64,000 bases of DNA. Origin: Alphaproteobacteria bacterium. GTDB lineage: Bacteria; Pseudomonadota; Alphaproteobacteria; MPNO01. Of this stretch, positions 6,742-24,878 are shown one piece after another. The stretch is taken from positions 3,149,909 through 3,213,908 of the forward strand of contig OZ219866.1 of the NCBI GenBank assembly GCA_964291675.2, given 5' to 3'. Made by a program: the position numbers and the translations under genes. Every line of letters starts with the position of its first letter. Positions within the stretch are counted from its first letter, which is position 1. Under the pieces are notes generated by a model. That model had not been told where the DNA came from, made no database searches, and worked only from the letters and a program-made list of their open reading frames with translations.

Positions 6742-6770
6742 TTGACCCTTGTCCGGGCCGGGGCTAGGCT
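6742..6770 (+). promoter_or_regulatory. sigma70-type promoter: TTGACC - 17 nt - TAGGCT
   Basis: TTGACC lies at 6742-6747 and TAGGCT at 6765-6770, starting 1 nt after the adk stop and about 75 nt upstream of ATG 6845. The same -10 hexamer recurs at 32774, 63091 and 63945. Confidence 0.5.
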
Positions 6771-6844
6771 CCGCGCAATTCCCCCGGCCGCCCGACCCGA
6801 TGCCCCGATTTGTCGAGCGGCGGCGCTACAGGAGGAGTCCCGAC

Positions 6845-7975
6845 ATGGCGCAGAAGAAGGCCGTCTTCATCGACCGCAGCGGGTACACGACGCCCGAGCT
6901 CGATCTCTGGGAGCCGGTGGTGATCACCAGGGAGGAGATCGACGGCGAGGTCGAGCGGCTGGCCAGCCTGGCGCGGCCGGCCAACGGCCGGCGCCACTCG
7001 ATCGTCGCCCATCCCGACTGGCAGGCGCTCGGCGTCGGTCCCGGCCTGCAGCCCGGGGTGCGCGTCACGCTGGAGGTGCTGAAGCCCGGCGAGCAGTCGG
7101 CGCCGATCCGCCACAACTCGACCCAGGTGAATTTCTGCATCGGCGGCGGCGGGTACTCGATCGTCGACGGCAAGCGCATCCCGTTTGCGCTCTACGACGT
7201 GTGGAACTTCCCGTCGATGGCGACCTACTGGCACGTCAACGATTCCGACGACGTGCAAGTTCGGCTCTCCTACTCCAACGCGCCGCTCTTGGAGAAGATG
7301 AACGTCCACATCGTCGACGAGGAGCCGCCGCCGCCGATCGAGGCGGTCGGCGGCGGCGCGCAAGCCGAGGCCGAGGCGCCGCCCGATGCGCGCGACGTCA
7401 ACCCCTACGGCACCTTCCAGCTCACCGGGGACGGCGCCTGGCTGATGCCCTACGAGACGCTGATCAACCCCGAGGCGCTCGATTCGCCCGCGCTGCACTG
7501 GCCGTGGCAGGACGTGAAGCGCGAGCTCGACAAGCTCCAGGCCCTCGGCAAGGAGTATCGCGGCCGGCGGCTCTACCTGCTGTTCAACCCGATGACCGGG
7601 CGGTTCAACGGCACCACGCCGAGCTTCTTCGCCACCATGACGGTGCGCCCGCCGAAGATCGTCGACCGGCCGCACCGCCATGTCTCGGCGGCGATCAACT
7701 ACTATTTCTCGGGCAGCGGCCGGTCCACCGTCGAGGGCAAGGTCTATGAGTGGAAGGCGGGCGATCTGATGCTGTCGGCGCCGGGCTGGGCGGTGCACAA
7801 CCACGCCTCCTACGACGAGGCGGTCTACGAGCTGACCGTCCAGGACCAGCCGCTCAACATCGTCATGGAATCGCTCCTCTGGCAGGAGGACCTCAAGCAT
7901 CCGTGGTCGGTGCTCGGCGCCAATGTCGGCTTCGAGACCAACAAGGAGCAGGTCAGGGCGGCGCTCGGCGAATAG
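6845..7975 (+). CDS. bicupin protein, gentisate 1,2-dioxygenase-like family
   Basis: 376 aa from ATG 6845, with caggagg upstream. There are two cupin barrels. The C-terminal barrel carries PHRHVSAAINYYFSG...WAVHNH metal-ligand-like residues, while the N-terminal one has only RHNS. Assignment is at family level only. Confidence 0.6.
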   Translation: MAQKKAVFIDRSGYTTPELDLWEPVVITREEIDGEVERLASLARPANGRRHSIVAHPDWQALGVGPGLQPGVRVTLEVLKPGEQSAPIRHNSTQVNFCIGGGGYSIVDGKRIPFALYDVWNFPSMATYWHVNDSDDVQVRLSYSNAPLLEKMNVHIVDEEPPPPIEAVGGGAQAEAEAPPDARDVNPYGTFQLTGDGAWLMPYETLINPEALDSPALHWPWQDVKRELDKLQALGKEYRGRRLYLLFNPMTGRFNGTTPSFFATMTVRPPKIVDRPHRHVSAAINYYFSGSGRSTVEGKVYEWKAGDLMLSAPGWAVHNHASYDEAVYELTVQDQPLNIVMESLLWQEDLKHPWSVLGANVGFETNKEQVRAALGE

Positions 7976-7979
7976 CGCC

Positions 7980-8879
7980 ATGATGGACCTGCCGGAGGAC
8001 TTCCTGCGCGGCTCGATACCGCCGCTGATCACCCCGTTCCGCGACGGCGCCGTCGACTACGCGGCCTATGCCGGGATGGTCGAGTTCCAGATCCGCGAGG
8101 GCTCGCACGGCATCCTGGTCAACGGCACCACGTCGGAGCCCGCGACGCTCACGGTCGCCGAACGCAACCGGGCCGTCGACGTGGCGGTCGAGGCGGCCGC
8201 GGGAAGGGTGCCGGTCGTCGCCGCCACCGGGTCGCAATCCTTCGCCGATGCCGAGGCGCTGACCCTGCATGCCGACAAGGCGGGGGCCGACGCGCTGCTG
8301 ATCGTCACCCCCTATTTCATCCGCCCGCCGCAGCGCGGGCTCGCCGCCTACTACCTGGAGCTCGCCACGCGCACCGAACTGCCCTGGATGATCTACCACA
8401 TCCCCGGCCGGGCGGCGGTGAGCGTGACCCTGGAGACGCTGTGCGAGATCGCCGACAAGGCGCCCAACTTCGTCGGCATGAAGCACGCCGTCGACGATCT
8501 CGGCTTCGTCAGCCGCTGCCTCGCCCGGCTCGGCATGGATTTCCGCATCTTCGTCGGGCTGGAGGACCTCAGCTACCCGATGATGGCGGTCGGCGCCTGC
8601 GGGCTGATGAACGCGGTCGGCAATCTGCGCCCGGCGCGGCTGGCGGCGATGTGCGAGGCGGTCTGGGAGGGCGACCTCAAAAAGGCGCGGGACATCCACT
8701 ACGCGCTGTTCGAGATCAACCAGGCGGTGTTCTACGACACCAACCCGATCCCCATCAAATACATGATGAAGCGGGTCGGGCTGATCCCGGAGAACGCGCA
8801 CCGCCTGCCGATGGTCCCGGCGCTGCCCGAGCTCGAACGACGCCTCGACGGCGTGCTGGAGCGGGCGGGGATGGTGTAG
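7980..8879 (+). CDS. DapA/N-acetylneuraminate-lyase family class I aldolase (dihydrodipicolinate synthase family protein)
   Basis: 299 aa with ..PPLITPF..GILVNGTTSE..ATGS..YHIPGR..FVGMKHA.. (Schiff-base Lys context). ATG 7980 is 5 nt after the bicupin stop. Confidence 0.8.
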   Translation: MMDLPEDFLRGSIPPLITPFRDGAVDYAAYAGMVEFQIREGSHGILVNGTTSEPATLTVAERNRAVDVAVEAAAGRVPVVAATGSQSFADAEALTLHADKAGADALLIVTPYFIRPPQRGLAAYYLELATRTELPWMIYHIPGRAAVSVTLETLCEIADKAPNFVGMKHAVDDLGFVSRCLARLGMDFRIFVGLEDLSYPMMAVGACGLMNAVGNLRPARLAAMCEAVWEGDLKKARDIHYALFEINQAVFYDTNPIPIKYMMKRVGLIPENAHRLPMVPALPELERRLDGVLERAGMV

Positions 8880-12316: not shown

Positions 12317-12876
12317 GGCGTCACCTCGCTGCCGGCCAGCATCGCGCGCAGCCGCTTGCGCGCCTCGTGCATGCGCCACGACACGGTGGATTCGGAGACG
12401 CCCAGCACCTCGGCGGCTTCCGCATGCCGCAACCCCTCCTCGATCACCAGGGTCACGGTCGTTCGCAAATCGGCGCCGAGCATCTCCAGCACCTGGCGCA
12501 GCCAGACGGCCTCGTCCTCGCGCTCGGCCTGTCCGGCCCGGGTCAGGGTGTCGATCTCGGCGAACGCCTGCTCGTTGCGCCGCCTCGCGCCGTCGCGCCG
12601 CAGGCGGTCGCGCGCGGCGTTGACCACCACCCGGTAGAGCCAGGTGGTGAACCGGCTCTCGCCCCGGTATGAGGCGAGCCGGGCGGCCAGGCCGACGCAC
12701 ACATCCTGCGCCAGGTCGGCCGCATCGTCCGCGTCGCCCAGCACCCGCGCGCCCACCCGGTATATCCGTTCGTAGTGACGCTCGATGAGCGCCGCAAAGG
12801 CGTCGCGGTCACCGGCCGCGGCTCGTCCGGCCAGCGCGCCGTCGGTCTCCCCGTTCATCTGGGCACAAGTGTCCAA
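12313..12876 (-). CDS. RNA polymerase ECF-type sigma factor
   Basis: Region 2 is ..FTTWLYRVVVNAARDRLRR.. and region 4 HTH is ..GLRHAEAAEVLGVSESTVSWRMHEARKRLR.. The start could be ATG 12858 rather than TTG 12876. Confidence 0.88.
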   Translation of the reverse strand: MDTCAQMNGETDGALAGRAAAGDRDAFAALIERHYERIYRVGARVLGDADDAADLAQDVCVGLAARLASYRGESRFTTWLYRVVVNAARDRLRRDGARRRNEQAFAEIDTLTRAGQAEREDEAVWLRQVLEMLGADLRTTVTLVIEEGLRHAEAAEVLGVSESTVSWRMHEARKRLRAMLAGSEVTP

Positions 12877-12922: not shown

Positions 12923-13786
12923 TTGGCCGGCTTGGCGGCGCGGTGCTACGGTCGCGTCATCCGACGGCGGGACGGGAGACGGCGCGTGCAAGTCACCCTG
13001 CTGGGCACCGGGCTGCCCTTCCCCAATCCGAAGCGGCGCGGCCCGGGCTACGCGGTGCGGGCCGGGTCGAACGGCTTCCTGGTCGATTGCGGCTCCGGCG
13101 TGGTGGTGCGGCTGGTCGAGGCGGGGGTACCGCTCGACAGCATCGAGCACGTCTTCATCACCCACCTGCATTCCGACCACTACATCGATCTCGGGCATTT
13201 CATCATCTGCCGCTGGATCCTGGGCGGCGACGCGCCGTGGCACATCTACGGGCCGCCCGGGCTTCGGCCGATGGTCGACCAGCTGCTCGAGATGCACCGC
13301 CCGGACCTCGAAAGGCGCATGAAGATCCGCACCGCGCGGCGGGAAATGCCCAATATCGTGGTGCACGAGATCGACCAGGGCCTCGCGGCCGAAATCGACG
13401 GGATCGAGGTCACCGCCTTCGATGTCGACCACTTCCCGCTGGAACAGCCCTTCGGCTACCGCTTCGAATCGAAGGACCGGCGGATCGTTCTGTCCGGCGA
13501 CACCTGCCCCTGCGAGAATCTGATCCGGCACGCGCACCGGGCGGATATCCTGATCCACGAATGCATGCAGTACGAGAAGTGGCGGGCGCCCGAGATCGAC
13601 AAGAGCCACACCGCGCACGCCCACACCTCGCCCGAACGGCTCTCGCTGGTCGCCCGGGACGCCGAGGTGAACATGCTGGTCACCACCCACATGATGCCCG
13701 ACGCGGTGCCCCGCGAGCTCAGCGAGATCATCCGCCGCGACTACCGGGGACCGCTCGCCATCGGCGAGGATCTGATGACGCTGTAG
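12923..13786 (+). CDS. MBL-fold metallo-hydrolase
   Basis: The HxHxDH motif ITHLHSDHYIDLGH is present. The N-terminus ..VTLLGTGLPFPN.. suggests the true start may be GTG 12986. Confidence 0.8.
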   Translation: MAGLAARCYGRVIRRRDGRRRVQVTLLGTGLPFPNPKRRGPGYAVRAGSNGFLVDCGSGVVVRLVEAGVPLDSIEHVFITHLHSDHYIDLGHFIICRWILGGDAPWHIYGPPGLRPMVDQLLEMHRPDLERRMKIRTARREMPNIVVHEIDQGLAAEIDGIEVTAFDVDHFPLEQPFGYRFESKDRRIVLSGDTCPCENLIRHAHRADILIHECMQYEKWRAPEIDKSHTAHAHTSPERLSLVARDAEVNMLVTTHMMPDAVPRELSEIIRRDYRGPLAIGEDLMTL

Positions 13787-13804
13787 GGGAACCTCGCCTA
13801 CAGC
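13780..13804. terminator. hairpin shared by two convergent genes (8-bp stem GCTGTAGG/CCTACAGC, 9-nt loop)
   Basis: The left arm contains the TAG stop of the MBL gene (13784-13786). The right arm contains the CTA (TAG on the minus strand) stop of the amidohydrolase gene (13798-13800). There is no U-tract. Confidence 0.3.
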
Positions 13805-14640
13805 CCGAGGACGGTCTCGGCGTTGCCGTGGAAGAATTTTTCTAGGAACGCGTCGCTGTAGCCGACCTTGCCCCATTCCTCGAACAGCCGCCCGTAGGGC
13901 ATCGAGGGGTAGTCGCTGCCGAACATCACCTTGTCCTTCAGGCGCGAGCGCATGTCGCGCAGCAGCGACTCGGGGATGTATTTGGGCGCCCAGCCGGACA
14001 TCTCCCAGAACACGTTGCCCTTGTGCAGCGCGACCGCCGTCATCTCCTCGATCCACGGCCAGCCGGGATGGGCGGCGACGATGGTGAGCGCCGGGAAATC
14101 CGCGGCGAGGTCGTCGATCGCCGACGGGTGGGCGTGGCGGATCCGGGCGCCGAGACCGCCCGGCATGCCGGCCCCCATGCCGGTGGTGCCGACATCGATC
14201 ATCACCGGCACGCCGAGCGCCGCGATCGCTTCCCATAGCGGGTAGAAGCGGCGCTCGTTGACCGCGAAGTGGCCCATGATGGGGTGGAAGTGGAAGCCCA
14301 GCAGGCCGAGATCGTTGACGGCGTGCTCGGCTTCCGCGATGGCGGCCTCGCCCTTCAGCGGGTCCACCGCCCCCCAGGCCTGGATGATGCGCTCGGGGTG
14401 GCGCTTCCACATGCCGGCGACGTAGTCGTTCGAGCACGGCGGCGTGCCCACCGTGGCTTCGAGGTCGAGCGCCACCAGCACCGCCTCCACCCCCGCCTCG
14501 GCGAAATCCCGGACCACCTCGTCCTCTTCTTTGGCCGACCACTCGCGCTTCCAGTACTCGGCGAGCGCCTTCACATAGGGCCCCTGGCAGTCGATCCAGG
14601 GCTGGGTGTTGGGATAGCAGTGCAGGTCGACAATGCGCAT
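13798..14640 (-). CDS. amidohydrolase-2 family protein (ACMSD-type metal-dependent hydrolase/decarboxylase fold)
   Basis: 280 aa beginning MRIVDLHCYP.. with ..VMIDVGT..HPGWPW.. Family-level recognition only. Its start is 2 nt downstream of the adenylase stop. Confidence 0.6.
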   Translation of the reverse strand: MRIVDLHCYPNTQPWIDCQGPYVKALAEYWKREWSAKEEDEVVRDFAEAGVEAVLVALDLEATVGTPPCSNDYVAGMWKRHPERIIQAWGAVDPLKGEAAIAEAEHAVNDLGLLGFHFHPIMGHFAVNERRFYPLWEAIAALGVPVMIDVGTTGMGAGMPGGLGARIRHAHPSAIDDLAADFPALTIVAAHPGWPWIEEMTAVALHKGNVFWEMSGWAPKYIPESLLRDMRSRLKDKVMFGSDYPSMPYGRLFEEWGKVGYSDAFLEKFFHGNAETVLGL

Positions 14641-14642
14641 GG

Positions 14643-16292
14643 CTAGCTGTTCGCCTCATCGGCGAGCTTGGCGGAGATCGTCTCCACTAGCGCCTTCTTC
14701 GAGACCTTGCCGAAGGCGGAGACCGGGAAGCTGTCGACGATCTCGATGCGCTCCGGCAGCTTGAAGCGCGCGATCTCCTTCTGCTCGAGGAAGCCAACCA
14801 GCTCGGCCAGCTCGATGTTGCGGCCGGGATGGAGGACGAGGTAGGCGCACATGCGCTCGCCGAGGCGCGCATCCGGCATCGGCACGCAGGCCACGTTGCG
14901 CACCGCGGGGTGCATGAGGATCAGGTTCTCGATCTCCTCGGCCGAGATCTTCTCCCCGCCGCGGTTGATCAGGTCCTTGATCCGCCCCTCGACGATGTAG
15001 TTGCCCGAAGAGTGCTGGCGCAGCAGGTCGCCCGAGCGGTAGAAGCCGTCATTGGTGAAGGCGCGCGCGTTGTGCTCGTCGGCCGCGAAATAGCCGCGCA
15101 GGGTATAGGGGCCGCGCACGCAGAACTCGCCCACCTCGCCGAACGGCACCAACTGGTCCTCTTCGTCGAGCAGCATGACCTCGTCGTCCGGGCACATCGG
15201 CTGTCCGACGGTCTCAAGCTGGGCGTCCTCGCTGTCGGTCCGCTTGACGAACATCAGCGTGCCCTCGGCCATGCCGAAATTCTCCTGCACGAAGGCGTTG
15301 GGATAGACCTCCCGCATCCGGCGCTTGACCTCGGGCTGGAGCCGCTGGCCGCCGCTGCCGATCATCCGCACCGACGACAGATCGTAATCGGCCGCCGCCG
15401 GATCGTTGATCCAGCCGATATGGAGCGCCGGCACGCCGATCACATGGGTCACGCGGTGCTTCTCGATCATCGCGAAGGCATCCGGCGCGCGGGCGCTGGT
15501 CGACAGCACCACGGCGGCGCCGTTGAGCAGATAGCCCTGCAAGCCGGGGCAGGCGAGCGGCAGGTTGTGCGCGATCGGCAGCACGATGAAGAGCCGCGAA
15601 TCGGGCGTCACCTCGGTCTCCCGCGCCGCCTGTTTCGAGTTGTAGGCGTAGTCGTTATGGGTGCGCGGGATCAGCTTGGGGATGCCGGTGGTCCCGCCGG
15701 AGAGCTGGAACACCGCGGGATCGGCGGGGTCGATCTCGATCGCGGCCAGCGCGTCCGCGCCGAGCGGCGACGGCCGTTCGATCAGCTCGCGCAGCGACAC
15801 CGAATCGCCCGTCGCCTCGCCCATGACGACGAGATGTTTCAGGCGGCCGTTCTCCGCCCGCACCCGCGCCGCCATGTCGCGGTAGTCGAAGCCGCGGATC
15901 GTGTCGGGAATGACGCAGGCGGTCGCGCCCGACAGCGCCACGAACTGGCCGATCTCGGCGAAGCGATGGGTGACCAGCGCCGCGATGGGGATGCAGCCGG
16001 CCTTCTGCAGCGCGACGTAGAGGACCGCGAACTCCTTCACGTTGGGGAGCTGGATCACCACCCGGTCGAGCGGTCTCAGCCCGAGCGCCACCAGGTTGAG
16101 CGCCAGATTGGTCGACATCCGGTCGAGCTCGCCATAGCTCAGCTCGCCGGTCTCGTCGATCACCGCGACCCGGTCGGCGAATTTCTTCAGGCAGGGCTGC
16201 AGCTCGTCGCGCAGCGCGCGGTCCTCCCAGTAGCCCTTGTCGCGGTAGAGCTTCTGAAACTCGGCGGGGTAGGGGACGACGCCTTGCAGCAT
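14643..16292 (-). CDS. aryl-acid adenylating enzyme, (2,3-dihydroxybenzoate/salicylate)-AMP ligase family (DhbE/EntE-like)
   Basis: 549 aa, collinear with DhbE as I recall it: ..FQLSGGTTGIPKLIPRTHNDY.., ..AHNLPLACPG.., ..FGMAEG.., ..YRSGDL.., ..GRIKDLINRGGEKISAEEIE.., ..GKVSKKAL.. Confidence 0.85.
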   Translation of the reverse strand: MLQGVVPYPAEFQKLYRDKGYWEDRALRDELQPCLKKFADRVAVIDETGELSYGELDRMSTNLALNLVALGLRPLDRVVIQLPNVKEFAVLYVALQKAGCIPIAALVTHRFAEIGQFVALSGATACVIPDTIRGFDYRDMAARVRAENGRLKHLVVMGEATGDSVSLRELIERPSPLGADALAAIEIDPADPAVFQLSGGTTGIPKLIPRTHNDYAYNSKQAARETEVTPDSRLFIVLPIAHNLPLACPGLQGYLLNGAAVVLSTSARAPDAFAMIEKHRVTHVIGVPALHIGWINDPAAADYDLSSVRMIGSGGQRLQPEVKRRMREVYPNAFVQENFGMAEGTLMFVKRTDSEDAQLETVGQPMCPDDEVMLLDEEDQLVPFGEVGEFCVRGPYTLRGYFAADEHNARAFTNDGFYRSGDLLRQHSSGNYIVEGRIKDLINRGGEKISAEEIENLILMHPAVRNVACVPMPDARLGERMCAYLVLHPGRNIELAELVGFLEQKEIARFKLPERIEIVDSFPVSAFGKVSKKALVETISAKLADEANS

Positions 16293-16310
16293 GGCGGGCT
16301 CCGGGGCGGA

Positions 16311-17075
16311 TCAGGTGACGGCGGCAAACCCGCCGTCGATGACGACGATGTGGCCGGTGACGAATTTGTTGCTCACGACGAGGCTGAGCACGGTCTCGGC
16401 CACGTCCTCGGCGGTGGCGACGCGCTTGAGCGGCGTGTAGCGCGCGCGCCTCGCCATCAGCCCCTCGTAGTTCTCCGCCAGGGTGCGCTCCATCCACTCG
16501 CCTTCCATCCAGCCCGGCGCGACCGCGTTGACCCGGATCTCCGGGCCGAGCGCGCCCGCCAGCGTCCGGGTCAGGTTGGCGACGGCGGCCTTGCTGGCGG
16601 CGTAGGGCAAGGGCTGCGGGCCGGGCCGCAGCCCGGCGATGGAACAGGTGTTGACGATGCAGGGCTCGGCGGATTTGCGCAGCAGCGGCACTGCGGCGCG
16701 GGTGACCTGGAACAGCCCGCGCACGTTGACCGCGAAGACCCGGTCCCAGGCATCGAGATCGACCGCGTCCATGTCCTTCGGTCCGGTCTCGATGGTGGTG
16801 CCGGCGTTGTTGACCAGCACGTCGAGGCGGCCGAAGGCGTCCTCGCAGGCGGCCAGCATCGCCTTGACCGCGCCGTCATCGGCGACGTCGCACCGGACGG
16901 CGAAGGATTCCGCACCCGCCGCCGCGCAGGCCGCCGCCGTCTCCTCCGCGCGCGCCCGGGAGGAGCCGTAATTGACCGCGACGTCATGGCCCGCGCGGGC
17001 GAGCGCGATCGCCGTCGCCGCGCCGATGCCGCTCGACGCGCCCGTGACCAGTGCCGTGCGCCGCTCTTCACTCAT
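16311..17075 (-). CDS. SDR-family oxidoreductase
   Basis: ATG 17075 gives MSEERRTALVTGASSGIGAA.. (TGxxxGxG), with ..NNAG.. and ..YAASKAAV.. catalytic motifs. Confidence 0.88.
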   Translation of the reverse strand: MSEERRTALVTGASSGIGAATAIALARAGHDVAVNYGSSRARAEETAAACAAAGAESFAVRCDVADDGAVKAMLAACEDAFGRLDVLVNNAGTTIETGPKDMDAVDLDAWDRVFAVNVRGLFQVTRAAVPLLRKSAEPCIVNTCSIAGLRPGPQPLPYAASKAAVANLTRTLAGALGPEIRVNAVAPGWMEGEWMERTLAENYEGLMARRARYTPLKRVATAEDVAETVLSLVVSNKFVTGHIVVIDGGFAAVT

Positions 17076-17156
17076 CCAGGGTTTCCGTATTTGGGCAGCA
17101 GGGTTGAAGCCGAAGGGGCCGATCCCCGTCAAGTCTTCCCATTGGAGGGCTGGCGT

Positions 17157-17915
17157 TCAACCCCGGCGCCGGCCGTCGCGGTCCCGCCTCCGCTTGCCGC
17201 TCAACGCTTCCGCCAGCGCGCCGTAGGTCGCCGAGAGCCTGACCCCGGGGCTGTCCGGGTCGGCGGCGCAGGTCTCGCACATGTTGAGGCTGGTATAGCG
17301 GGCGGGGCGCACGCTCACCGCGGTGGCCAGCAGCATGCGCTCCTCCTCGGTTTCCGGGCGCAGCGGCTCGGGACCCTCGGCGAGGCGTTTCATCTCTTCC
17401 TCGTCGCCGCCGGCGCGGCGCGACAGCAGCTCGTAGGTCGCGCGCTCGAAGGCGGAAGCGGCCCGGTAATGCGCCTCCACGCAGCAGAGCGGGAAGCCGA
17501 GCAGCCGCGCCTCCTGCTCGATCTCCGGGCGGCCGCCGTCGGCCAGCGCCTTGAGCTCGTCGGCGATCGCGCGTCCCTTGGCGATGTAATGCGCGCGGCC
17601 CTCGTCGAGCCCCTTGCGGCCGGTCTCGACGAACCAGCCGGGAAGGTCGGAGGACGGGCGGATGGCCTCCCAGTAGGGACCCGGGACGACATAGAGCCGG
17701 TTGGAGGCGGCGACTTCCAGCACCGCCGCCCGCCAGCCGTCGTGATCGAAGCCGCGCCCGGTCACGTAGACCGGCTTGATCCCCGCCATCATGGCGACGA
17801 AGTCGATCGCTTCCTGCGCCGCGGTGGCGCGCACGTAGCCGTCGGACCAGTCGATCTGCGCGGCATACAGCTTTCTGAGCGCCGAGCGCAGCCGGGGCTT
17901 GTTGGCGAGCTTCAT
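17157..17915 (-). CDS. hypothetical protein (no family recognised)
   Basis: ATG 17915 overlaps the emrB-like stop (ATGA) and gives 252 aa, MKLANKPRLRSALRKLYAAQIDW.. It contains ..LGFPLCCVEAHY.. and ..NMCETCAADP.. Confidence 0.55.
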   Translation of the reverse strand: MKLANKPRLRSALRKLYAAQIDWSDGYVRATAAQEAIDFVAMMAGIKPVYVTGRGFDHDGWRAAVLEVAASNRLYVVPGPYWEAIRPSSDLPGWFVETGRKGLDEGRAHYIAKGRAIADELKALADGGRPEIEQEARLLGFPLCCVEAHYRAASAFERATYELLSRRAGGDEEEMKRLAEGPEPLRPETEEERMLLATAVSVRPARYTSLNMCETCAADPDSPGVRLSATYGALAEALSGKRRRDRDGRRRG

Positions 17916-19447
17916 GCGCTTCTCCGGCGCCGCCGGGGCGGCCCCGCGGTCCGCAACAGGGCGATCAGCGGGATGGTCGCCAGCGCCGCGATGGCGAGGG
18001 CATGGAAGTCGTTGGCGAAGCCGATCGCCTGGGCCTGGCGGAAGATCTCGCCATCCAGCGCGGCGATGCCGGGGGACGAGGCGGGGTCCCACGCCTCCGG
18101 CAGGTATGGCGCCTGCGCGCCTTCGCGGTAGGGATCGACGCGCGCGGAGATCTCGCCCTCGGAGACCGCGCGGGTGCGGCTCAGGATCGCCACCACGACG
18201 GAGACGCCCACGCCCGAGCCGTAATTCCTAGCCAGGCTGGTCAGCGTCGACGCCTCGGTCCGATGTCGCGCGGGCAGGGTCTCGAAGGATATCACCGTGA
18301 GCGGCACCCAGATGAAGCCGATGCCGAGCCCGTTGACGAAGGCCGCCCAGGACACGTCGTAGAGGTCGACATCGGCCGAGAATGTCGAGAGATAATAGGA
18401 CGAGACGGCGACGCAGGCGAAGCCGAGCGCGCACACCGGCCTGCCGTCGACATGGCGCACCAGCCACCCCGCCAGCAGCAGCGAGGCGAAGGTGCCGAGA
18501 CCGCGCGGCGCCATCACATAGCCCGCCGTGATCACCGGAAGACCCCGCAGGACTTGCAGGAACATCGGCAGGATCACGTTGAGCGCCAGCACGCAGACCC
18601 CGAGCAGGAACATGAAGGCGAGGCCGAGCACGAAGTTGCGGTCGGACAGGATGCCGCGCGAGATGAAGGGGGTGTCCGTGGTGAGCGAATGGACCGTGAA
18701 GACGTAGAGGCCGAGCACCACGATCGCCGCCTCGACGACGATCTCGGGCGAGTCGAACCAGCCCTCCTGCTCGCCCCGGTCGAGCAGGAGCTGGAGCGCG
18801 GCAAGCGCGCAGGCGAGCGCGACGAAGCCGAACAGATCGAACGGCCGGTCCTGCTTCGCCAGGGTCTCCCGCATGAAGCCGAGGCCGAGCGCGAGCCCGG
18901 CCAGCGCGAACGGGATGCCGATGAAGAAGATCCACTGCCAGCCGTAATTCTCGGTGACGAAGCCGCCGACCACGGGGCCCATGACGGGCGCGAACATCAC
19001 CCCGGTCCCCCAGATCGCGAGCGCCGAGCCGTGCCGTTCCGGCGGGTAGTTGTCGAGCATCAGCGCCTGCGAGATCGGGATCACCGGCGCGCTCATCGCC
19101 CCCTGGCAGGCGCGCCAGACCAGGATTTCGGGCAGCGAGGTGGCGCTGCCCGACAGCATCGAGAAGCCCATGAACCCGGCGAGCGCGAGCAGGAAGGTGC
19201 GCTTGCGCCCCAGCCTGCCCGCCACCCAGCCGGTGCATGCCGTGGAGATCGCCTGGCAGACGAAATAGGTCGTCATCACCCAGCCGATCTGGTCCTGGCT
19301 GGCACCCAGATTGCCCTGCATGTGCGGCAGGGCGATCGAGGCGATGGTCATGTCGAGGATGACGACCGTGGTCGCCATCATCACCGCGACGGTGACCATC
19401 GACCGCGCCAGATCGGATCGCCGCGGATCCGGCTCGCCTTCGGTCAT
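17912..19447 (-). CDS. emrB: MFS efflux transporter, DHA2 (EmrB/QacA) family
   Basis: ATG 19447 overlaps the emrA-like stop. MTEGEPDP..VAVMMATTVVILDMTIASIALPHMQGNLGASQDQIGW.. is a typical DHA2 N-terminus, and the protein is about 14 TM. Confidence 0.85.
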   Translation of the reverse strand: MTEGEPDPRRSDLARSMVTVAVMMATTVVILDMTIASIALPHMQGNLGASQDQIGWVMTTYFVCQAISTACTGWVAGRLGRKRTFLLALAGFMGFSMLSGSATSLPEILVWRACQGAMSAPVIPISQALMLDNYPPERHGSALAIWGTGVMFAPVMGPVVGGFVTENYGWQWIFFIGIPFALAGLALGLGFMRETLAKQDRPFDLFGFVALACALAALQLLLDRGEQEGWFDSPEIVVEAAIVVLGLYVFTVHSLTTDTPFISRGILSDRNFVLGLAFMFLLGVCVLALNVILPMFLQVLRGLPVITAGYVMAPRGLGTFASLLLAGWLVRHVDGRPVCALGFACVAVSSYYLSTFSADVDLYDVSWAAFVNGLGIGFIWVPLTVISFETLPARHRTEASTLTSLARNYGSGVGVSVVVAILSRTRAVSEGEISARVDPYREGAQAPYLPEAWDPASSPGIAALDGEIFRQAQAIGFANDFHALAIAALATIPLIALLRTAGPPRRRRRSA

Positions 19448-20505
19448 TTCCCCGGCGCCATGAAGGCGAGCGCCGAGCCCACCGCGTCGAACAGCGTCAC
19501 CTCGCGCCCGGTGTCGATGCTGACCGACACCGTGGCCCCCGCCGGCATGGCGAAGGGCCGCCCGGTGCCGCCGTCGATCTCCAGCCGCACCGGCACCCGC
19601 TGGACGATCTTGACCCAGTTGCCCGACGCGTTCTGCGGCGGCAGCACGGAGAGCTCGGCGCCGGTCGAGGGGCTGATGCTGGCGACCCGGGCGCGCCACG
19701 ACAGCTCCGGGAAGGCGTCGACCACGATCTCCGCCGGCTGGCCGACCCGGACATGGGTGAGCTGGGTCTCCTTGAGATTGGCCTCCACCCAGGCCCGGCC
19801 GGTCTCGATCAGCGGCATCACCGGCCTGCCGGCATCGACATACTCGCCCCGTTGCAGCCGCACCCGGCCGATCGTCCCGTCCGCCGGCGCCCGGATCACG
19901 GTGCGTCTCACGTCGATCTCCGCCCGGTCGCGCGCGGCCAGCGCCTCGCGGAATTGCGGGCTTTGCTCGGCCTCGATCCCGGGCGCGCCGCCGAGCTCGG
20001 CGAGGATGGCGAGACCCTTCTGGCGCACCGTGCCGGCGCGCTGGCGGGCGGCGATCAGGTTCCGCTCCGCCTCCTCGAACCGGGTGCGCGAGGCGTGGCC
20101 GCGTCCGGCAAGCTTCTCCTGCCGGTCGAAGATGCGCTGGCGATAGGCGACCTCCTGCTCGGCCTCCCGCAGCTCCTCCCGGGCGCCGCGCCAGGACGCG
20201 CGCAGCGCGACCATCCGGTTGCGCACCGCAGCCAGCCTGGCATCGGCCTCGGCGAGCGCGACGCGAAACGGTTCCGCGTCGATCGAGAAGATCGCATCGC
20301 CCGCCCGGATGGCCGCGTTCTCCGCCACGAAGACATCGGCGACCCGGCCCGGGATCTCGGCGCTGATCTGGATCACGTTGGCCTTCACATAGGCGTTCTC
20401 GGTGGTCACGTAGCGACCCGACGCGACCCAGTAATGCGCGCTCACGACAATGGCCGCGGCCGGCACGACGACGAGCAGGACTATGCGAAGCAGCGCGCGC
20501 CTCAC
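19444..20505 (-). CDS. emrA: HlyD-family membrane fusion protein (EmrA-like)
   Basis: 353 aa with one N-terminal TM, ..YVTTENAYVKANVIQISAEIPGRV.., a coiled-coil middle and a beta-barrel end. Confidence 0.85.
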   Translation of the reverse strand: MRRALLRIVLLVVVPAAAIVVSAHYWVASGRYVTTENAYVKANVIQISAEIPGRVADVFVAENAAIRAGDAIFSIDAEPFRVALAEADARLAAVRNRMVALRASWRGAREELREAEQEVAYRQRIFDRQEKLAGRGHASRTRFEEAERNLIAARQRAGTVRQKGLAILAELGGAPGIEAEQSPQFREALAARDRAEIDVRRTVIRAPADGTIGRVRLQRGEYVDAGRPVMPLIETGRAWVEANLKETQLTHVRVGQPAEIVVDAFPELSWRARVASISPSTGAELSVLPPQNASGNWVKIVQRVPVRLEIDGGTGRPFAMPAGATVSVSIDTGREVTLFDAVGSALAFMAPGK

Positions 20506-20565
20506 CCCGCGGTTTCCTTCTCCAGCCTGTTGCGGAAGGAGTCCGGGCCGGGCCCGGAAACCGTT

Positions 20566-20593
20566 AGATTACTAACATTCTCCTTCCCGGCAA
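20566..20593 (-). promoter_or_regulatory. candidate promoter of the emrA operon (minus strand TTGCCG - 16 nt - TAATCT) with an overlapping near-palindrome
   Basis: The minus-strand -35 is at 20588-20593 and the -10 at 20566-20571. GTTAG-atta-CTAAC at 20563-20576 overlaps the -10. This AT-rich patch lies about 55-90 nt upstream of GTG 20505. Confidence 0.4.
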
Positions 20594-20646
20594 AGCGCGC
20601 AGAGGTCGGGCGCGTGCCGCCGTTTCGACCGGATCCCCGCCGGAGG

Positions 20647-21062
20647 CCACTGCTGTCCGGATTAGATGGGCTGGACGGGGCGCAAAGCCTTGTTCCGGGC
20701 GGGATATCGGCGCATCCGCCGGATCGGGACACGGATCGCCGCACGCCCGCACTTGCCGTCCCTGCCCCTCCGTTGTCACCCCGGCCTCGTTCCGGGCACC
20801 CACGGGCGGGGCGGGCCGCACCCGGCTCCCGTACTCCTCCACCGCCACCCCCACCCCGTCATGGCCGGACTTGATCCGGCCACCCATGCGCGGACTTGAT
20901 CCGCGCAACCACTGGCGCCACCGGTACAACGCCCCGTCCGGAGGAGCGGCGGCGCCAGTGGATGCCCGGATCAAGTCCGGGCATGACGATGGGGGGAGGC
21001 ATGGCGCTGGGCGGGGAACGCCGGGCGCGACCCGCGTCGAAGGCTAAACCGGACAGCAGTGG
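20647..21062. repeat. mosaic repeat cluster bounded by 19-bp inverted repeats CCACTGCTGTCCGG(A/T)TTAG (MITE/REP-like)
   Basis: The left IR is 20647-20665 and the right IR 21044-21062 (18/19). Internal modules recur at 62800-62900 (inverted, about 100 bp) and 63590-63667 (direct, about 80 bp). It contains GTCATGGCCGGACTTGATCCGGCC-type hairpins. Confidence 0.8.
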
Positions 21063-21118
21063 AACGAGTCCGGCCATGGCGGAGAAGGCCGGAGATGACG
21101 GGTGGCGGGCCGCGGATG

Positions 21119-21146
21119 TTGTCCGCGAGCCCCGCGGGCGTATTAT
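21119..21146 (+). promoter_or_regulatory. candidate sigma70-type promoter TTGTCC - 16 nt - TATTAT
   Basis: It lies 34 nt upstream of GTG 21180 of the first TauD/TfdA gene, just outside the repeat cluster. Confidence 0.4.
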
Positions 21147-21179
21147 TGGCCGGGGACGCAGAGGACGGGTTGCGAGACG

Positions 21180-22025
21180 GTGAGCCTGCGCATCGAAAAG
21201 CTGCATGAGGCGATCGGCGCCGAGGTGATCGGCGTCGACCTGGCGCGGCCGCTCGGCGCGGCCGAGATCGCCGGGATCGAGGCCGCCTGGCTGGAGCATG
21301 TCGTGCTGGTGTTCCGCGGCCAGGAGCTCGACCAGGAGGCGCAGCTCCGCTTCGCCGGCCAGTTCGGCACGCTCGGCGAGCGGTCGAGGCCGGCCGAGAT
21401 CAGGCCGGAGGGGGCCGATTTCCACCCCGCCGTCATGCTGGTGTCCAATATCCGCGAGAACGGCAGGCCGATCGGCTCGCTGCCCGACGGCGAGATGTGG
21501 TTCCACCACGACATGTGCTACGTGGCCGAGCCCTATCGCGGCACCATGCTGTACGCGATCGACATCCCGAGCCGCGGCGGCAACACGCTGTTCGCCAACA
21601 TGTACGCGGCCTATGACCGGCTCGATGCCGCGACGAAGGCGCGAATCGCCGGCGCCCGCGCGCTCCAGATCTACAACTACTCGGTCACCGAGAAGGTCTC
21701 GCTTGACGCCGACCTCGACGATTACCCGCATTTCGTCCAGCCGGTGGCGATCGCCCATCCGCGGACCGGCCGCAAGGCGCTCTACGTCAATCCGCTGATC
21801 ACCGCGCGGATCGAGGGGCTGCCCGAGGCCGAGAGCGACGCCCTGCTGGAAGAGCTGTTCGGCTTCACCGAAGATCGCGGGCTGATCTACGAGCATGTGT
21901 GGCGCGAGGGCGACCTGGTGATGTGGGACAACTGGTGCTCGTGCCACGCGCGCACGGACTTCCCGGAGAACGAGCGCCGCCTGCTCCGGCGGTGCACCAT
22001 CCTCGGCGAGGCGCTGGCCGAATAG
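21180..22025 (+). CDS. TauD/TfdA-family Fe(II)/2-oxoglutarate dioxygenase (paralog 1)
   Basis: GTG 21180 gives 281 aa. The HxD motif sits in ..MWFHHDMCY.., with the distal His in ..WDNWCSCHART.. and ..GGNTLFANM.. Confidence 0.85.
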   Translation: MSLRIEKLHEAIGAEVIGVDLARPLGAAEIAGIEAAWLEHVVLVFRGQELDQEAQLRFAGQFGTLGERSRPAEIRPEGADFHPAVMLVSNIRENGRPIGSLPDGEMWFHHDMCYVAEPYRGTMLYAIDIPSRGGNTLFANMYAAYDRLDAATKARIAGARALQIYNYSVTEKVSLDADLDDYPHFVQPVAIAHPRTGRKALYVNPLITARIEGLPEAESDALLEELFGFTEDRGLIYEHVWREGDLVMWDNWCSCHARTDFPENERRLLRRCTILGEALAE

Positions 22026-22036
22026 GAGGGCAGGAG

Positions 22037-22882
22037 ATGGCCTTGAGAACCAGGAAGCTTTCCCCGCATATCGGCGTCGAGGTCATGGATATCGACCTCG
22101 CGAGGAGGCCGGACGAGGCGACGATCCGCGAGATCTACCGGCTCTGGCTCGACCACATCATGGTGGTCTTTCGCGGCCAGTCGCTCGACCAGGAGAGGCT
22201 GCTCCAGGTCACCTCCTATTTCGGCACGCCCGGCGCCAACGCCAGGCCCAGGGAATACCGCACCTCGGGCCAGCACGACATGCTGCCCGGCATCATGCTG
22301 ATCAGCAACATCCGGGCCAACGGCGAGCCGATCGGCGCGCTCCCCGACGGCGACATGATGTTCCACCACGACATGATCCACGCCGACGTGCCCGACAAGG
22401 CGACCTGCCTGTATGCGGTGGAGATCCCGTCGGAGGGCGGCAACACGCTGTTCGCCAGCGGCTACGCGGCCTACGAGACGCTCGACGCCGGACTCCGCGA
22501 CTCGCTCGAGGGCAGGCGCGCCTTCCACCACTACAATTACGGCTCGCAGCACCGCGGCGACGACATCGGCACGCCGGCCTTCTCCGAGGCCGAGCACCCG
22601 GTGTTCCGCACCCATCCGGAGACCGGCCGCAAGGCGGTCTATGTCGACCGGCTGATCACCGCCTCGATCGTCGGCATGGAGGAAGACGAGAGCGAGGCCG
22701 CGCTCACCCGGCTGTTCGACCATTCGGAGAAGGACGAGTTCGTCTACGAACATGTCTGGCAGAAGGGCGATCTGCTGCTCTGGGACAACCGCTGCTCGAT
22801 GCATGCCAGGCGCGACTTTCCGTCCACCGAGCGGCGCCTGTTGTGGCGCACCACGGTGAGCAGCGAAGACCGGCCGGCCTGA
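22037..22882 (+). CDS. TauD/TfdA-family Fe(II)/2-oxoglutarate dioxygenase (paralog 2)
   Basis: ATG 22037 follows AGGAGGGCAGGAG. The 281-aa product is collinear with paralog 1 (..MMFHHDMIH.., ..GGNTLFASG.., ..WDNRCSMHARR..), with roughly 40-45% identity by eye. Confidence 0.85.
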   Translation: MALRTRKLSPHIGVEVMDIDLARRPDEATIREIYRLWLDHIMVVFRGQSLDQERLLQVTSYFGTPGANARPREYRTSGQHDMLPGIMLISNIRANGEPIGALPDGDMMFHHDMIHADVPDKATCLYAVEIPSEGGNTLFASGYAAYETLDAGLRDSLEGRRAFHHYNYGSQHRGDDIGTPAFSEAEHPVFRTHPETGRKAVYVDRLITASIVGMEEDESEAALTRLFDHSEKDEFVYEHVWQKGDLLLWDNRCSMHARRDFPSTERRLLWRTTVSSEDRPA

Positions 22883-22892
22883 GGGCGCGCCG

Positions 22893-23705
22893 GTGGGCAA
22901 GGCTCTGAGCGCGGCCGAGGTCGAGCGCTATCGCCGGGACGGCTTCGTGTTCCCGGTCCGCATCATGGACCGGGCCGCGGCGGATGCGCTGCGCGCGCGC
23001 TTCGATGCGCTCGAAGCCGAGACCGGGGCGGAGCCGCAGAGCCGCTTCAAGATCAAGGCCCACATGCCGCTCACCTGGCTGAACGAGCTGGTGCGCAACC
23101 CGGCGATGCTGGATGCGGTGGAGGACCTGATCGGTCCCGACATCTTGTGCTGGGGCTCGTCGTTCTTCACCAAGAAGGCGCGCGACCCGCGCTTCGTCTC
23201 GTGGCATCAGGATTCCACCTATTACGGGCTGCGCCCGGCCGAGACCGTCACCACCTGGGTCGCGTTTACCGACAGCCGGATCGAGCAGGGCTGCGTCCGC
23301 TTCGTGCCCGGGACCCATCGCGACGGCATCCTCGACCACGAGGAGACGATGGACCCGCAGAACCTGCTGATGAAGGGCCAGACCATCGCCGGGGTGGACG
23401 AGAGCCGCGCGGTCGATTGCGAGCTCTCCGCCGGCGAGATCTCGATCCACCACGAATCGGTGGTGCACGGCTCCAACCCCAATAGCTCGGACAAGCCGAG
23501 GATCGGGCTCTCGATCCACTACGTCGCGCCGCATGTCCGCCAGACCGCGTTCGAGGGCGCCTCCGCCCTGGTGGTGCGGGGCCGCGACACGCACGGCCAC
23601 TGGGAGCCCGAGCCCGAGCCGCGGCACGACCTCGACCCGGTCTGTCTCGCCGCCCTCGACGAGGTCTACGCCCAGTACCGCAGCGGCCGGGGCAAGCGGG
23701 GCTGA
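22893..23705 (+). CDS. phytanoyl-CoA dioxygenase (PhyH) family Fe(II)/2OG oxygenase
   Basis: 270 aa with ..YRRDGFVFPV.., ..WHQDSTYYGL.. (HxD) and ..ESVVHGSNPN.. Confidence 0.8.
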   Translation: MGKALSAAEVERYRRDGFVFPVRIMDRAAADALRARFDALEAETGAEPQSRFKIKAHMPLTWLNELVRNPAMLDAVEDLIGPDILCWGSSFFTKKARDPRFVSWHQDSTYYGLRPAETVTTWVAFTDSRIEQGCVRFVPGTHRDGILDHEETMDPQNLLMKGQTIAGVDESRAVDCELSAGEISIHHESVVHGSNPNSSDKPRIGLSIHYVAPHVRQTAFEGASALVVRGRDTHGHWEPEPEPRHDLDPVCLAALDEVYAQYRSGRGKRG

Positions 23706-23792
23706 GGCGGGCGATTCCATCTGGCACCGACAGGTCCGGGTGTATAGGTTGCCCGGATCGTGCCGTGCGTCCGATACAGGGAGAAACCGAAC

Positions 23793-24878
23793 ATGTCATC
23801 GTCCAGCAAGTTGAAATCGCTCGCCTTCGGCGTCGCCGCCCTCGGCCTGGCCGCGGCGGTACCGGTCTCGGCGGTCGACGCCAAGTCGTTCACGCTGCGC
23901 ATCGGCGCCGGCCAGGCGATGAAGCCGCTCGAGCCGATCTTCATGGCGAGCACCTATTTCGTGCCCACCGTCAAGGCGCGGGTCGAGAAGGAGACCGACC
24001 ACAAGATCCGCTTCATCGAGGCCTATGGCGGCACCGTCGCCGGGCCGTTCGATGTGCTGGAGTCGGTCGAGAAGGGGCTGTTCGACATCGGCCTCTGGTG
24101 CGCCTGCTTCGAGCCCACCAAGGCGGTCCATTTCGCCTTCCACTACTTCGTGCCGTTCGTCACCGACGATCCGGTGTTGCAGGACAAGATCACCCGGAAG
24201 ACCTACAAGCAGTTCCCGGCGTGGACCGAGTCGCTGCACAAGTATAACCAGAAGTGGCTCGGCGCCGGCACGTTCTCGTCCTACGGGCTCGGCACCAAGT
24301 TCAAGTGGTCCAAGATGTCCGACCTCAAGGGCCGCAAGATCGCCGGCGCCGGCCCCAACCTGCCGTGGCTGAAACTGTCCGGGGCGACCGCCGTCCAGAC
24401 CAGCCTGAACGAGTCCTACAACTCGCTCCAGTCGGGCGTCTATGAGGGGCTGGTGATCTTCCCGACCGCCTGGCTCGGCTTCAAGCTCAACGAGCCGGCG
24501 AAGGTGTTCACCGTGGTCGGCTGGGGCTCGACGTCGCTCTACCAGATGACGATGAACCTCAAGAGCTACAACAAGCTGCCGCCCGAGGTGCGGAAGATCA
24601 TCGACGAGGAGTCAGAGATCTGGATGGACAAGTCGGCCCAGGAATCCTCCAGGCGCTTCGATGCCTCGCTCAAGAAGCTCAAGGAGACCGGCAGCACGAT
24701 CCAGTACTTGCCCCCCGAGGAGCGCGCCAAGATGGCCGCGGCGCTCGGCGACTGGCCGAAGCAGAACGCCAAGAAGTTCGACGGCCAGGGCCTGCCCGGC
24801 ACCGCGCTGATGAAGGCCTATCTCGCGAACGCGGAAGCCGCCGGCATCAAGCTGCCGCACAAATACGATCTCGACTAG
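23793..24878 (+). CDS. TRAP transporter substrate-binding protein (DctP-type)
   Basis: ATG 23793 gives the signal peptide MSSSSKLKSLAFGVAALGLAAAVPVSA. The overall pattern is that of a TRAP solute receptor and resembles the second SBP at 60124. Confidence 0.7.
   Translation: MSSSSKLKSLAFGVAALGLAAAVPVSAVDAKSFTLRIGAGQAMKPLEPIFMASTYFVPTVKARVEKETDHKIRFIEAYGGTVAGPFDVLESVEKGLFDIGLWCACFEPTKAVHFAFHYFVPFVTDDPVLQDKITRKTYKQFPAWTESLHKYNQKWLGAGTFSSYGLGTKFKWSKMSDLKGRKIAGAGPNLPWLKLSGATAVQTSLNESYNSLQSGVYEGLVIFPTAWLGFKLNEPAKVFTVVGWGSTSLYQMTMNLKSYNKLPPEVRKIIDEESEIWMDKSAQESSRRFDASLKKLKETGSTIQYLPPEERAKMAAALGDWPKQNAKKFDGQGLPGTALMKAYLANAEAAGIKLPHKYDLD

Follow-up and report, generated by a model that had tools for sequence, protein, structure and literature searches.

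A conserved dehydrogenase-ligase-amidohydrolase cassette beside an EmrAB-type efflux operon in a sponge-associated Defluviicoccus-like alphaproteobacterium

The locus considered here lies in a 64,000-nt stretch of contig OZ219866.1 (the window, in whose positions coordinates are given; G+C approximately 69%) and consists of six consecutive minus-strand genes, in which the components of an EmrAB-type efflux pump are followed by a protein of 252 residues and three predicted enzymes. In order of transcription these encode an EmrA-like membrane-fusion adaptor of the HlyD family (19444-20505, 353 aa; Pfam HlyD_D23 and HlyD_3), an EmrB-like efflux permease of the DHA2 family of the major facilitator superfamily (MFS; 17912-19447, 511 aa), the 252-residue protein, which has no Pfam, NCBIfam or PDB sequence match (17157-17915), a classical FabG-like short-chain dehydrogenase/reductase (SDR; 16311-17075, 254 aa; Pfam adh_short and adh_short_C2), an adenylate-forming ligase of the EntE/DhbE clade, or adenylase (14643-16292, 549 aa; AMP-binding domain), and an amidohydrolase-2 protein (AH2; 13798-14640, 280 aa; PF04909, 5.8e-43). 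The two pump genes overlap by 4 nt (ATGA), as do emrB and the gene that follows it, while the remaining three junctions are gaps of 81 nt before the SDR gene, 18 nt between the SDR and adenylase genes and 2 nt between the adenylase and AH2 genes, all exactly as given in an initial annotation of the sequence. The nearest related locus belongs to a sponge-derived Defluviicoccus sp. metagenome-assembled genome (MAG) and is 96% identical over the 252-residue protein; sequencing runs containing the region, among the Logan contig sets, are mostly labelled sponge metagenome, with fragmentary coverage, and none of them was identified as RNA or gave strand direction. Below, related loci are numbered L### (the nearest being L001) and the genomes of relatives G###, with G000 the genome of the window.

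A scan of relatives with the 252-residue protein recovered 33 loci, all from Rhodospirillales-like MAGs, onto which the window proteins were mapped. The gene for this protein is co-located with TauD- and PhyH-type genes in approximately 27 of the 33 loci and has EmrAB upstream in approximately 19, usually with genes for a dihydrodipicolinate synthase (DHDPS)-like protein and a bicupin convergent on its other side. The SDR, adenylase and AH2 genes, hereafter the trio, follow it directly only in the closest relatives (L001, L002 and L005-L011). In L004 the gene for the 252-residue protein runs straight into a gene for a protein of the metallo-beta-lactamase (MBL) fold, and the trio, at 89% identity, is found approximately 600 kb away; in the genome of L014 the trio lies approximately 1.1 Mb away amid housekeeping genes; and adenylase orthologs occur away from the EmrAB locus in G403, G405, G406, G409 and G411, the complete trio being observed in the first two of these. 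A further locus, L003, retains an intact emrA, emrB and 252-residue gene set while its ligase is frameshifted and its AH2 gene lost. There (L003:11617-13186) a frameshift near residue 268 breaks the ligase reading frame in two, the frame stops short at residue 524 and AH2 is missing, which could reflect either decay of the cassette or an assembly error.

The trio shows the converse pattern, its gene order being kept at at least 11 unrelated genomic positions with unrelated flanks, and in every trio context examined the SDR gene is directly upstream of the ligase gene with AH2 after it. The orthologous group of the ligase comprises 119 full-length clusters (63-100% identity), and none of 400 other genomes sampled across the phylum contained an ortholog at E<=1e-150, indicating that the cassette is patchy in its distribution. 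The six genes, which the initial annotation had joined into one functional set, therefore separate when gene neighbourhoods are compared into two independent modules that are adjacent only in one Defluviicoccus-like sub-clade. One, emrA-emrB and the 252-residue gene, is a conserved Rhodospirillales locus with divergent TauD, TauD and PhyH genes; the other, SDR-adenylase-AH2, is a widespread, apparently mobile and self-promoted three-gene cassette. The full explanation favoured here, in which the two modules are combined with a catabolic function for the trio and regulation of the pump by a distant repressor, is judged slightly more likely than not.

The predicted promoter of the trio is a motif, TTGAAC-17-AAGACT (17132-17160, minus strand), in which the -35 element shares bases with the stop codon of the preceding gene. 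A motif of the general form TTGA(A/G/C)C-17-(A/G)A(G/A/T)ACT is found 82-107 nt upstream of the SDR start both where the trio adjoins the 252-residue gene (the window, L001, L005, L008 and L011) and where it lies elsewhere (L038 and L048), and since it accompanies the trio at both kinds of locus, the cassette appears to carry its own promoter. Between this motif and the SDR start, L038 (9130-9180) and L048 contain two to three direct repeats of (C/G)ACGATAC(T/C)GG, which may be a regulator-binding site in trios located away from the 252-residue gene; the window copy does not have them.

The separation of the two modules bears directly on the alternative that all six genes form a single hydroxybenzoate module, in which AH2 would carboxylate or decarboxylate a phenol or hydroxybenzoate, the adenylase would activate salicylate or dihydroxybenzoate and EmrAB would export the compound or its product. 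Such a module would be in keeping with the tight spacing of the genes, with the failure of a search of the spacer upstream of the SDR gene to find any terminator-like site, and with an adjacency that is kept in approximately 10 related genomes. It would also suit the salicylate-type Cys and Leu of the ligase pocket and the apparent control of the pump by a MarR-family protein, both described below, as MarR/EmrR regulators classically sense salicylate. However, the modules are apart in L004, L014 and all more distant relatives, the trio has its own promoter-like motif, and elsewhere it is never beside an efflux pump but beside uptake transporters and beta-oxidation genes. With the further difficulty that hydroxybenzoate decarboxylases resemble AH2 over only part of its length, a single module is considered unlikely.

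The best PDB match of the ligase is the salicylate-AMP ligase CahJ (1.2e-144), with DhbE at 1.4e-136, yet it falls below the cut-off of the (2,3-dihydroxybenzoyl)adenylate synthase equivalog TIGR02275 (526.2 bits vs 723.55). Alignment of the pocket with solved structures bore out the initial annotation, namely a DhbE/EntE-like protein with AHNLPLACPG where DhbE (1md9) has AHNYPLSSPG, and a Cys in place of the second Ser that marks salicylate-type enzymes. That Cys, at DhbE position 240, is shared with MbtA (5kei; AHNFPLACPG), CahJ (5wm2; AHNFALACPG) and PchD (7tyb; AHNFTLCCPG), and the LACPG segment is identical to that of MbtA and CahJ; in a second segment, GTLMF of the ligase is aligned to GLLNY. 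The residues at the positions that define the dihydroxybenzoate-type pocket (Tyr236, Ser240 and Val337) are Leu, Cys and Leu. The ligase thus has the Cys at position 240 and the Leu at position 337 (Leu/Ile type) of the salicylate enzymes and retains Asn235, but Leu and Asn, both invariant in the clade, replace the Phe at position 236 and the Val at position 329 of MbtA, CahJ and PchD. The segments HNLPLACPG and QENFGM(A/S)EG(T/V)(L/I)MF are invariant among the 119 orthologs, all of which have Leu at DhbE position 236, Glu at 328, Asn at 329, Leu or Ile at 337 and Met at 338. The pocket is not simply of the salicylate type; its invariant, clade-specific residues point to a specific substrate, and the enzyme is predicted to be an aryl or beta-hydroxy-acid CoA ligase.

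Since the top named homologs of the ligase are dihydroxybenzoate- and salicylate-AMP ligases, a remnant of an aryl-capped siderophore pathway dependent on a nonribosomal peptide synthetase (NRPS) could be considered, but this is effectively refuted. There are no condensation domains and no isochorismate synthase above cut-off in the whole 4.8-Mb genome, of which approximately 6% is unassembled, and PP-binding domains occur only at loci distant from the ligase. No carrier protein was found in more than 20 trio contexts, in which a carrier or NRPS partner beside the ligase had been sought as the mark of an ordinary siderophore fragment; nor did any of the contexts examined contain an NRPS condensation partner or isochorismate pathway genes. 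The score below the equivalog cut-off and a conserved, clade-specific pocket likewise argue for an active enzyme of different function. The earlier observation that the window holds no carrier protein, NRPS or isochorismate genes consequently extends to the whole genome, and the view stands that the adenylase belongs neither to siderophore synthesis nor to any degradation pathway described so far.

The amidohydrolase was the member of the trio whose placement changed. It had been called an ACMSD-family enzyme, of a fold that includes reversible hydroxybenzoate decarboxylases, but a PDB search with the single AH2 sequence returned no decarboxylase at E<=1e-3, and ACMSD-family decarboxylases match the AH2 profile only at approximately residues 57-150, about one third of its length (E 3e-14 to 6e-4). 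The best PDB match, and the one full-length relative there, is the uncharacterised BB4693 (3irs). A tblastn search of plasmids recovered a homolog in an hpe-like cluster of Rhodococcus sp. JS3073 that is 38% identical over 264 of 280 aa (E 6e-67). Genes for biotin carboxylase, HAD phosphatase and Acs-like ligase neighbour it, in the hpeA-hpeD-hpeE-hpeF arrangement known from the acetovanillone cluster (PMC9618137). HpeF and CouO belong to the amidohydrolase superfamily and hydrolyse beta-ketoacyl-CoA substrates (PMC9618137, PMC4737184), and with this type aligning along its full length, AH2 is assigned to an HpeF/CouO-like subfamily and predicted to be a beta-ketoacyl-CoA (C-C) hydrolase. In Variovorax the neighbours of a related AH2 are an SDR and a CoA ligase of the PaaK type, so that the association of this AH2 subfamily with an SDR and a ligase recurs with different ligase families. 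A benzoxazole-type NatL2/NatAM pair, considered as a candidate for the ligase and AH2, was rejected, the only PDB matches of AH2 being BB4693 and LigJ and the top matches of the ligase being of the DhbE type.

The best PDB matches of the SDR are 5iz4 and the FabG structure 4dml, and its best NCBIfam models are glucose 1-dehydrogenase and FabG. An EntA-like role was rejected, as no EntA or DhbA model was among the best 25 NCBIfam matches.

The surroundings of the trio in other genomes are catabolic in character. A larger Burkholderiales operon has the order LysR, TctC, SDR, ligase, AH2, an optional carboxylesterase, a PcaF-like thiolase and two enoyl-CoA hydratases, and occurs in aromatic-catabolic neighbourhoods, both on the plasmids of Sphaerotilus sulfidivorans D-507 and Acidovorax sp. 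DW039 and in genomes that are Hydrogenophaga-like. The ligases of the two plasmid hosts are WP_149505666.1 and WP_338799294.1, respectively. Other neighbours of the trio include LysR regulators, TctC or TRAP uptake systems, thiolase and enoyl-CoA hydratase genes, and ring-cleavage genes. At three loci (L059:4677-7155, L060:5828-7438 and L038:8055-9017) it is divergent from MetE-like (Meth_synt_2) or homocysteine S-methyltransferase-like genes, a possible sign that the substrate is methylated or methoxylated.

Taken together, the trio is probably a catabolic CoA cassette of the type 'activate, oxidise, hydrolyse' and not a builder of siderophores. In the proposed scheme, the ligase would convert an imported ortho- or beta-hydroxylated, salicylate-shaped acid into its CoA thioester, a role suggested by the retention in the pocket of the Asn that binds the 2-hydroxyl group together with the salicylate-type Cys and Leu, and by the precedent of the DhbE-like ligase Ccb2 of celesticetin biosynthesis, which has been shown experimentally to make salicylyl-CoA without a carrier protein (PMC5416915). 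The FabG-like SDR would then perform a redox step between the beta-hydroxy and beta-keto forms of this thioester, and the CouO/HpeF-like AH2 would hydrolyse a C-C bond of the resulting beta-ketoacyl-CoA. The products would pass to thiolase and hydratase steps, the genes for which are beside the trio in Burkholderiales and elsewhere in the genome of the window.

A more far-reaching version of this chemistry would be a reductive, oxygen-independent ring opening, in which the ligase makes a (poly)hydroxybenzoyl-CoA, for example the 2,4- or 2,6-dihydroxybenzoyl thioester, whose ring is reduced by the SDR at the expense of NAD(P)H; AH2 would then open the resulting cyclic beta-ketoacyl-CoA by hydrolysis. 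An extra polar residue in the ligase pocket, the invariant Asn at the position of DhbE V329, would suit such a substrate, and the Burkholderiales operons, with thiolase genes annotated pcaF (3-oxoadipyl-CoA thiolase), two enoyl-CoA hydratases and no acyl-CoA dehydrogenase, would fit a ring-opened dicarboxylyl-CoA; the carboxylesterase of the same operon would fit phenolic ester feedstocks. However, this proposal is purely inferential, no SDR is known to act on a benzoyl-CoA-type ring in this way, and the data have a simpler explanation in a beta-hydroxy acid that is not aromatic, so that ring opening of this kind is regarded as quite unlikely. A broader form is considered equally doubtful, in which the trio would constitute an oxygenase-independent ring-opening route for salicylate- or resorcylate-type acids (CoA activation, NAD(P)H-dependent ring reduction or beta-oxidation by the SDR, and hydrolytic retro-Claisen cleavage by AH2), and the sponge symbiont would combine it with a pump under MarR control that handles the same toxic acid.

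The trio could alternatively be biosynthetic, making a small acylated or aryl product for export by EmrAB with the 252-residue protein as a tailoring or immunity factor. The pump genes are upstream on the same strand, the 252-residue protein is translationally coupled to emrB, and natural-product pathways often use DhbE-like ligases (PMC5416915). Against this, an acyltransferase, a carrier protein, a condensation domain and a precursor-supply gene are all absent, and the contexts of the trio elsewhere are catabolic (LysR, TctC/TRAP uptake, thiolase and enoyl-CoA hydratase, ring-cleavage genes), making a biosynthetic role very improbable.

The pump itself is of the EmrAB type, with a DHA2 permease of the type with 14 transmembrane segments and a periplasmic adaptor encoded together with an ATGA overlap. 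EmrB passes TIGR00711 (349.5 bits vs a cut-off of 230.2), while EmrA is below the cut-off of TIGR00998 (230 vs 390.8 bits) though its HlyD domains match. Upstream of emrA is a promoter-like site, TTGCCG-16-TAATCT (20563-20593 with the palindrome, minus strand; -35 at 20593-20588, -10 at 20571-20566), and a palindrome, GTTAG-TAAT-CTAAC (20563-20576), overlaps the -10 element. A near-palindrome at this position had been noted initially, and the comparison with relatives strengthened the case for it: in ten of them (L001-L010) the arms are invariant and the spacer varies, and in the next clade (L012, L013 and L019) there is a symmetric variant, GATAG-N4-CTATC. Invariant arms together with a symmetric double change form the pattern expected of a dimer-binding site, and the palindrome accordingly behaves like, and is predicted to be, a real operator.

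The sequence GTTAG-N4-CTAAC occurs only twice in the 4.8-Mb genome. The second copy (G000 C2:1826811-1826824, equivalent to L062:4012-4025) lies 1.34 Mb from emrA and approximately 75 nt upstream of a gene for a 152-aa MarR-family protein (C2:1826898-1827356), which overlaps a gene for a 401-aa MFS transporter (L062:4099-5759), both being divergent from an enoyl-CoA hydratase gene. The position of this copy upstream of the marR and MFS genes makes the remote MarR protein a candidate repressor of the pump. The same palindrome is found upstream of the marR orthologs in G401, G402, G410 and G411, and relatives without the palindrome at emrA (G404, G406 and G407) are also without a MarR ortholog (three of three tested). 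Repression of emrA, emrB and the 252-residue gene by the remote MarR protein through the GTTAG-N4-CTAAC operator is predicted with roughly even chances of being correct. The initial statement that no MarR/EmrR-type regulator is encoded therefore holds for the window and probably not for the genome, where the candidate marR gene carries the same palindrome. The 252-residue protein had also been considered as the operator-binding regulator, its gene being divergent to oxygenase operons in all contexts, and this was down-weighted after the palindrome was found at marR. A third GTTAG-N4-CTAAC site with an AT-rich spacer is present in G402 (C1:1425678) and G410 (C2:1481551), approximately 90-120 kb from emrA, and may mark another member of the regulon.

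Several points weigh against the combined explanation of two modules, a catabolic trio and a MarR-controlled pump. The adjacency of the modules persists across relatives whose 252-residue proteins are 66-96% identical, and the absence of a terminator ahead of the SDR gene makes it possible that transcription reads through into the trio, which would imply a functional link with the pump. In the AH2 clade of the trio, D-L-H-C-Y replaces the HxH of the HpeF-like, Haloferax and Variovorax relatives (L045, L043 and L046), and Asp takes the place of the strand-5 His present in the HpeF-like and Haloferax proteins (L045 and L043); with two putative metal ligands replaced, its chemistry may differ from that of CouO-like proteins. 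The JS3073 protein was called HpeF-like by synteny with the published cluster (PMC9618137) alone and not by comparison with CouO directly. The window contains no enoyl-CoA hydratase, thiolase or uptake transporter gene linked to the trio. With respect to the pump, G403 and G405 have the GATAG variant at emrA and no palindrome within 170 nt of their marR orthologs.

The 252-residue protein belongs to a small family: searches of 5.8e9 and 1.84e9 proteins yielded 61 clusters and 292 cluster representatives, respectively. Its members have an invariant EARLLGxPxCCV motif, followed after two further residues by HY (H149 and Y150), and a near-invariant TSLNMCxxC motif; H149, Y150, C213 and C216 are near-invariant. 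The AlphaFold2 model (pLDDT 89.4, pTM 0.85) has an N-terminal half of alpha/beta type, the other half being helical and bearing the Cys residues, and a fold search gave no PDB match at E<=0.001. A profile search retrieved only further uncharacterised proteins of approximately 250 aa. Weak matches to DUF483 (PF04467) were obtained for 10 of 24 family members (best E 0.0043), with none for the window protein, and a literature search for 'DUF483' matched only DUF483x names. The protein could be an accessory metal-binding enzyme or sensor, and constitutes a rare family with a confidently predicted fold that has no PDB match.

Divergent from emrA, on the plus strand, are the Fe(II)/2-oxoglutarate dioxygenase genes of the conserved locus, assigned by Pfam in the order TauD, TauD and PhyH (21102-22025, 22028-22882 and 22893-23705). 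The locus as conserved in Rhodospirillales around the 252-residue gene (window 6746-8879 and 21102-24878; L012-L030) contains two to three TauD-family and one to two PhyH genes, an alpha/beta hydrolase, a SAM methyltransferase, a DHDPS-like aldolase, a bicupin and a TctABC or TRAP transporter, and looks like an uncharacterised Fe/2-oxoglutarate dioxygenase pathway of marine and sponge-associated bacteria. In the most distant loci, the 252-residue gene is divergent to an operon of DLH, cupin and HpaB-like genes in place of TauD. Most of the intergenic region between emrA and the first TauD gene is occupied by a repeat element of approximately 440 bp (20644-21082), with approximately 40 near-full copies and up to approximately 290 partial copies in the genome; in three runs, one labelled sponge metagenome, the contig depth of the repeat region is 1,400-5,000x vs approximately 20x. 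At the other end, a gene for an RNase Z/GntH-like protein of the MBL fold (12923-13786, plus strand) converges on the AH2 gene, with 11 nt between their ends, and is found only in the closest relatives L001, L002 and L004. No Rfam RNA families were detected between window positions 12500 and 24000.

The trio is thus put forward as a conserved catabolic cassette that, in a sponge-associated Defluviicoccus-like bacterium, has been recruited beside an efflux operon, and literature searches for the SDR, ligase and AH2 triad found no description of it. Orthologs of the ligase are annotated '2,3-dihydroxybenzoate-AMP ligase' or 'AMP-binding protein' and would be miscounted as siderophore genes. Finding the substrate would correct these annotations, and might uncover a previously unrecognised way in which phenolic or alicyclic acids enter metabolism.

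Compared with known systems, the pump module is closest to emrRAB of Escherichia coli, sharing a DHA2 MFS permease and a HlyD-family adaptor encoded by overlapping genes and a palindromic operator over the -10 element that is here probably bound by a MarR-family repressor. It differs from emrRAB in having a third, translationally coupled gene after emrB and in having no regulator gene within the operon, the MarR candidate being encoded 1.34 Mb away with its own MFS pump. AH2 belongs with the non-oxidative decarboxylases of the ACMSD family (gamma-resorcylate, 2,3-dihydroxybenzoate and salicylate decarboxylases and LigW) in PF04909 and the TIM-barrel superfamily, but is approximately 50-90 residues shorter than these and aligns with them only over the segment given above.

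The ligase is homologous over its full length to DhbE, EntE, MbtA, PchD and CahJ and has the same Asn (DhbE N235), together with the salicylate-type Cys (S240) and Leu/Ile (V337). It differs from them in the substitutions of Leu for Tyr or Phe at position 236, Glu for Gln328, Asn for Val329 and Met for Asn338, in its score below the TIGR02275 cut-off, in a genome without an aryl carrier protein, NRPS or isochorismate genes, and in its constant position between an SDR and an amidohydrolase. In the Sdg route of Streptomyces sp. WA46, the partners are reportedly a salicylyl-CoA 5-hydroxylase and a gentisate dioxygenase, not an SDR and an amidohydrolase. Both Ccb2 and the Sdg salicylyl-CoA route resemble the system described here in using a DhbE-like enzyme that converts salicylate to its CoA thioester without a carrier protein, while the partner of Ccb2 is an acyltransferase, Ccb1 (PMC5416915).

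The closest parallel for the trio as a whole is with the Cou and Hpe pathways of Rhodococcus for p-hydroxycinnamate (CouL, CouN, CouM and CouO) and acetovanillone (HpeE and HpeF), in which an AMP-forming ligase thioesterifies the acid. In the Cou pathway an SDR-type beta-hydroxyacyl-CoA dehydrogenase (CouM) acts next, followed by hydrolytic cleavage of the beta-ketoacyl-CoA by a protein of the amidohydrolase superfamily (PMC4737184, PMC9618137), and the ligase and AH2 genes of the trio are adjacent as are hpeE and hpeF. The trio differs in a ligase of the EntE/DhbE clade where the Rhodococcus enzymes are of the FadD or Acs type, in having HCY for HxH and Asp for the strand-5 His in AH2, and in including no enoyl-CoA hydratase, so that its substrate should already bear the beta-oxygen. 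Definition of that substrate would extend hydrolytic C-C cleavage of the CouO/HpeF type to a new clade of ligases.

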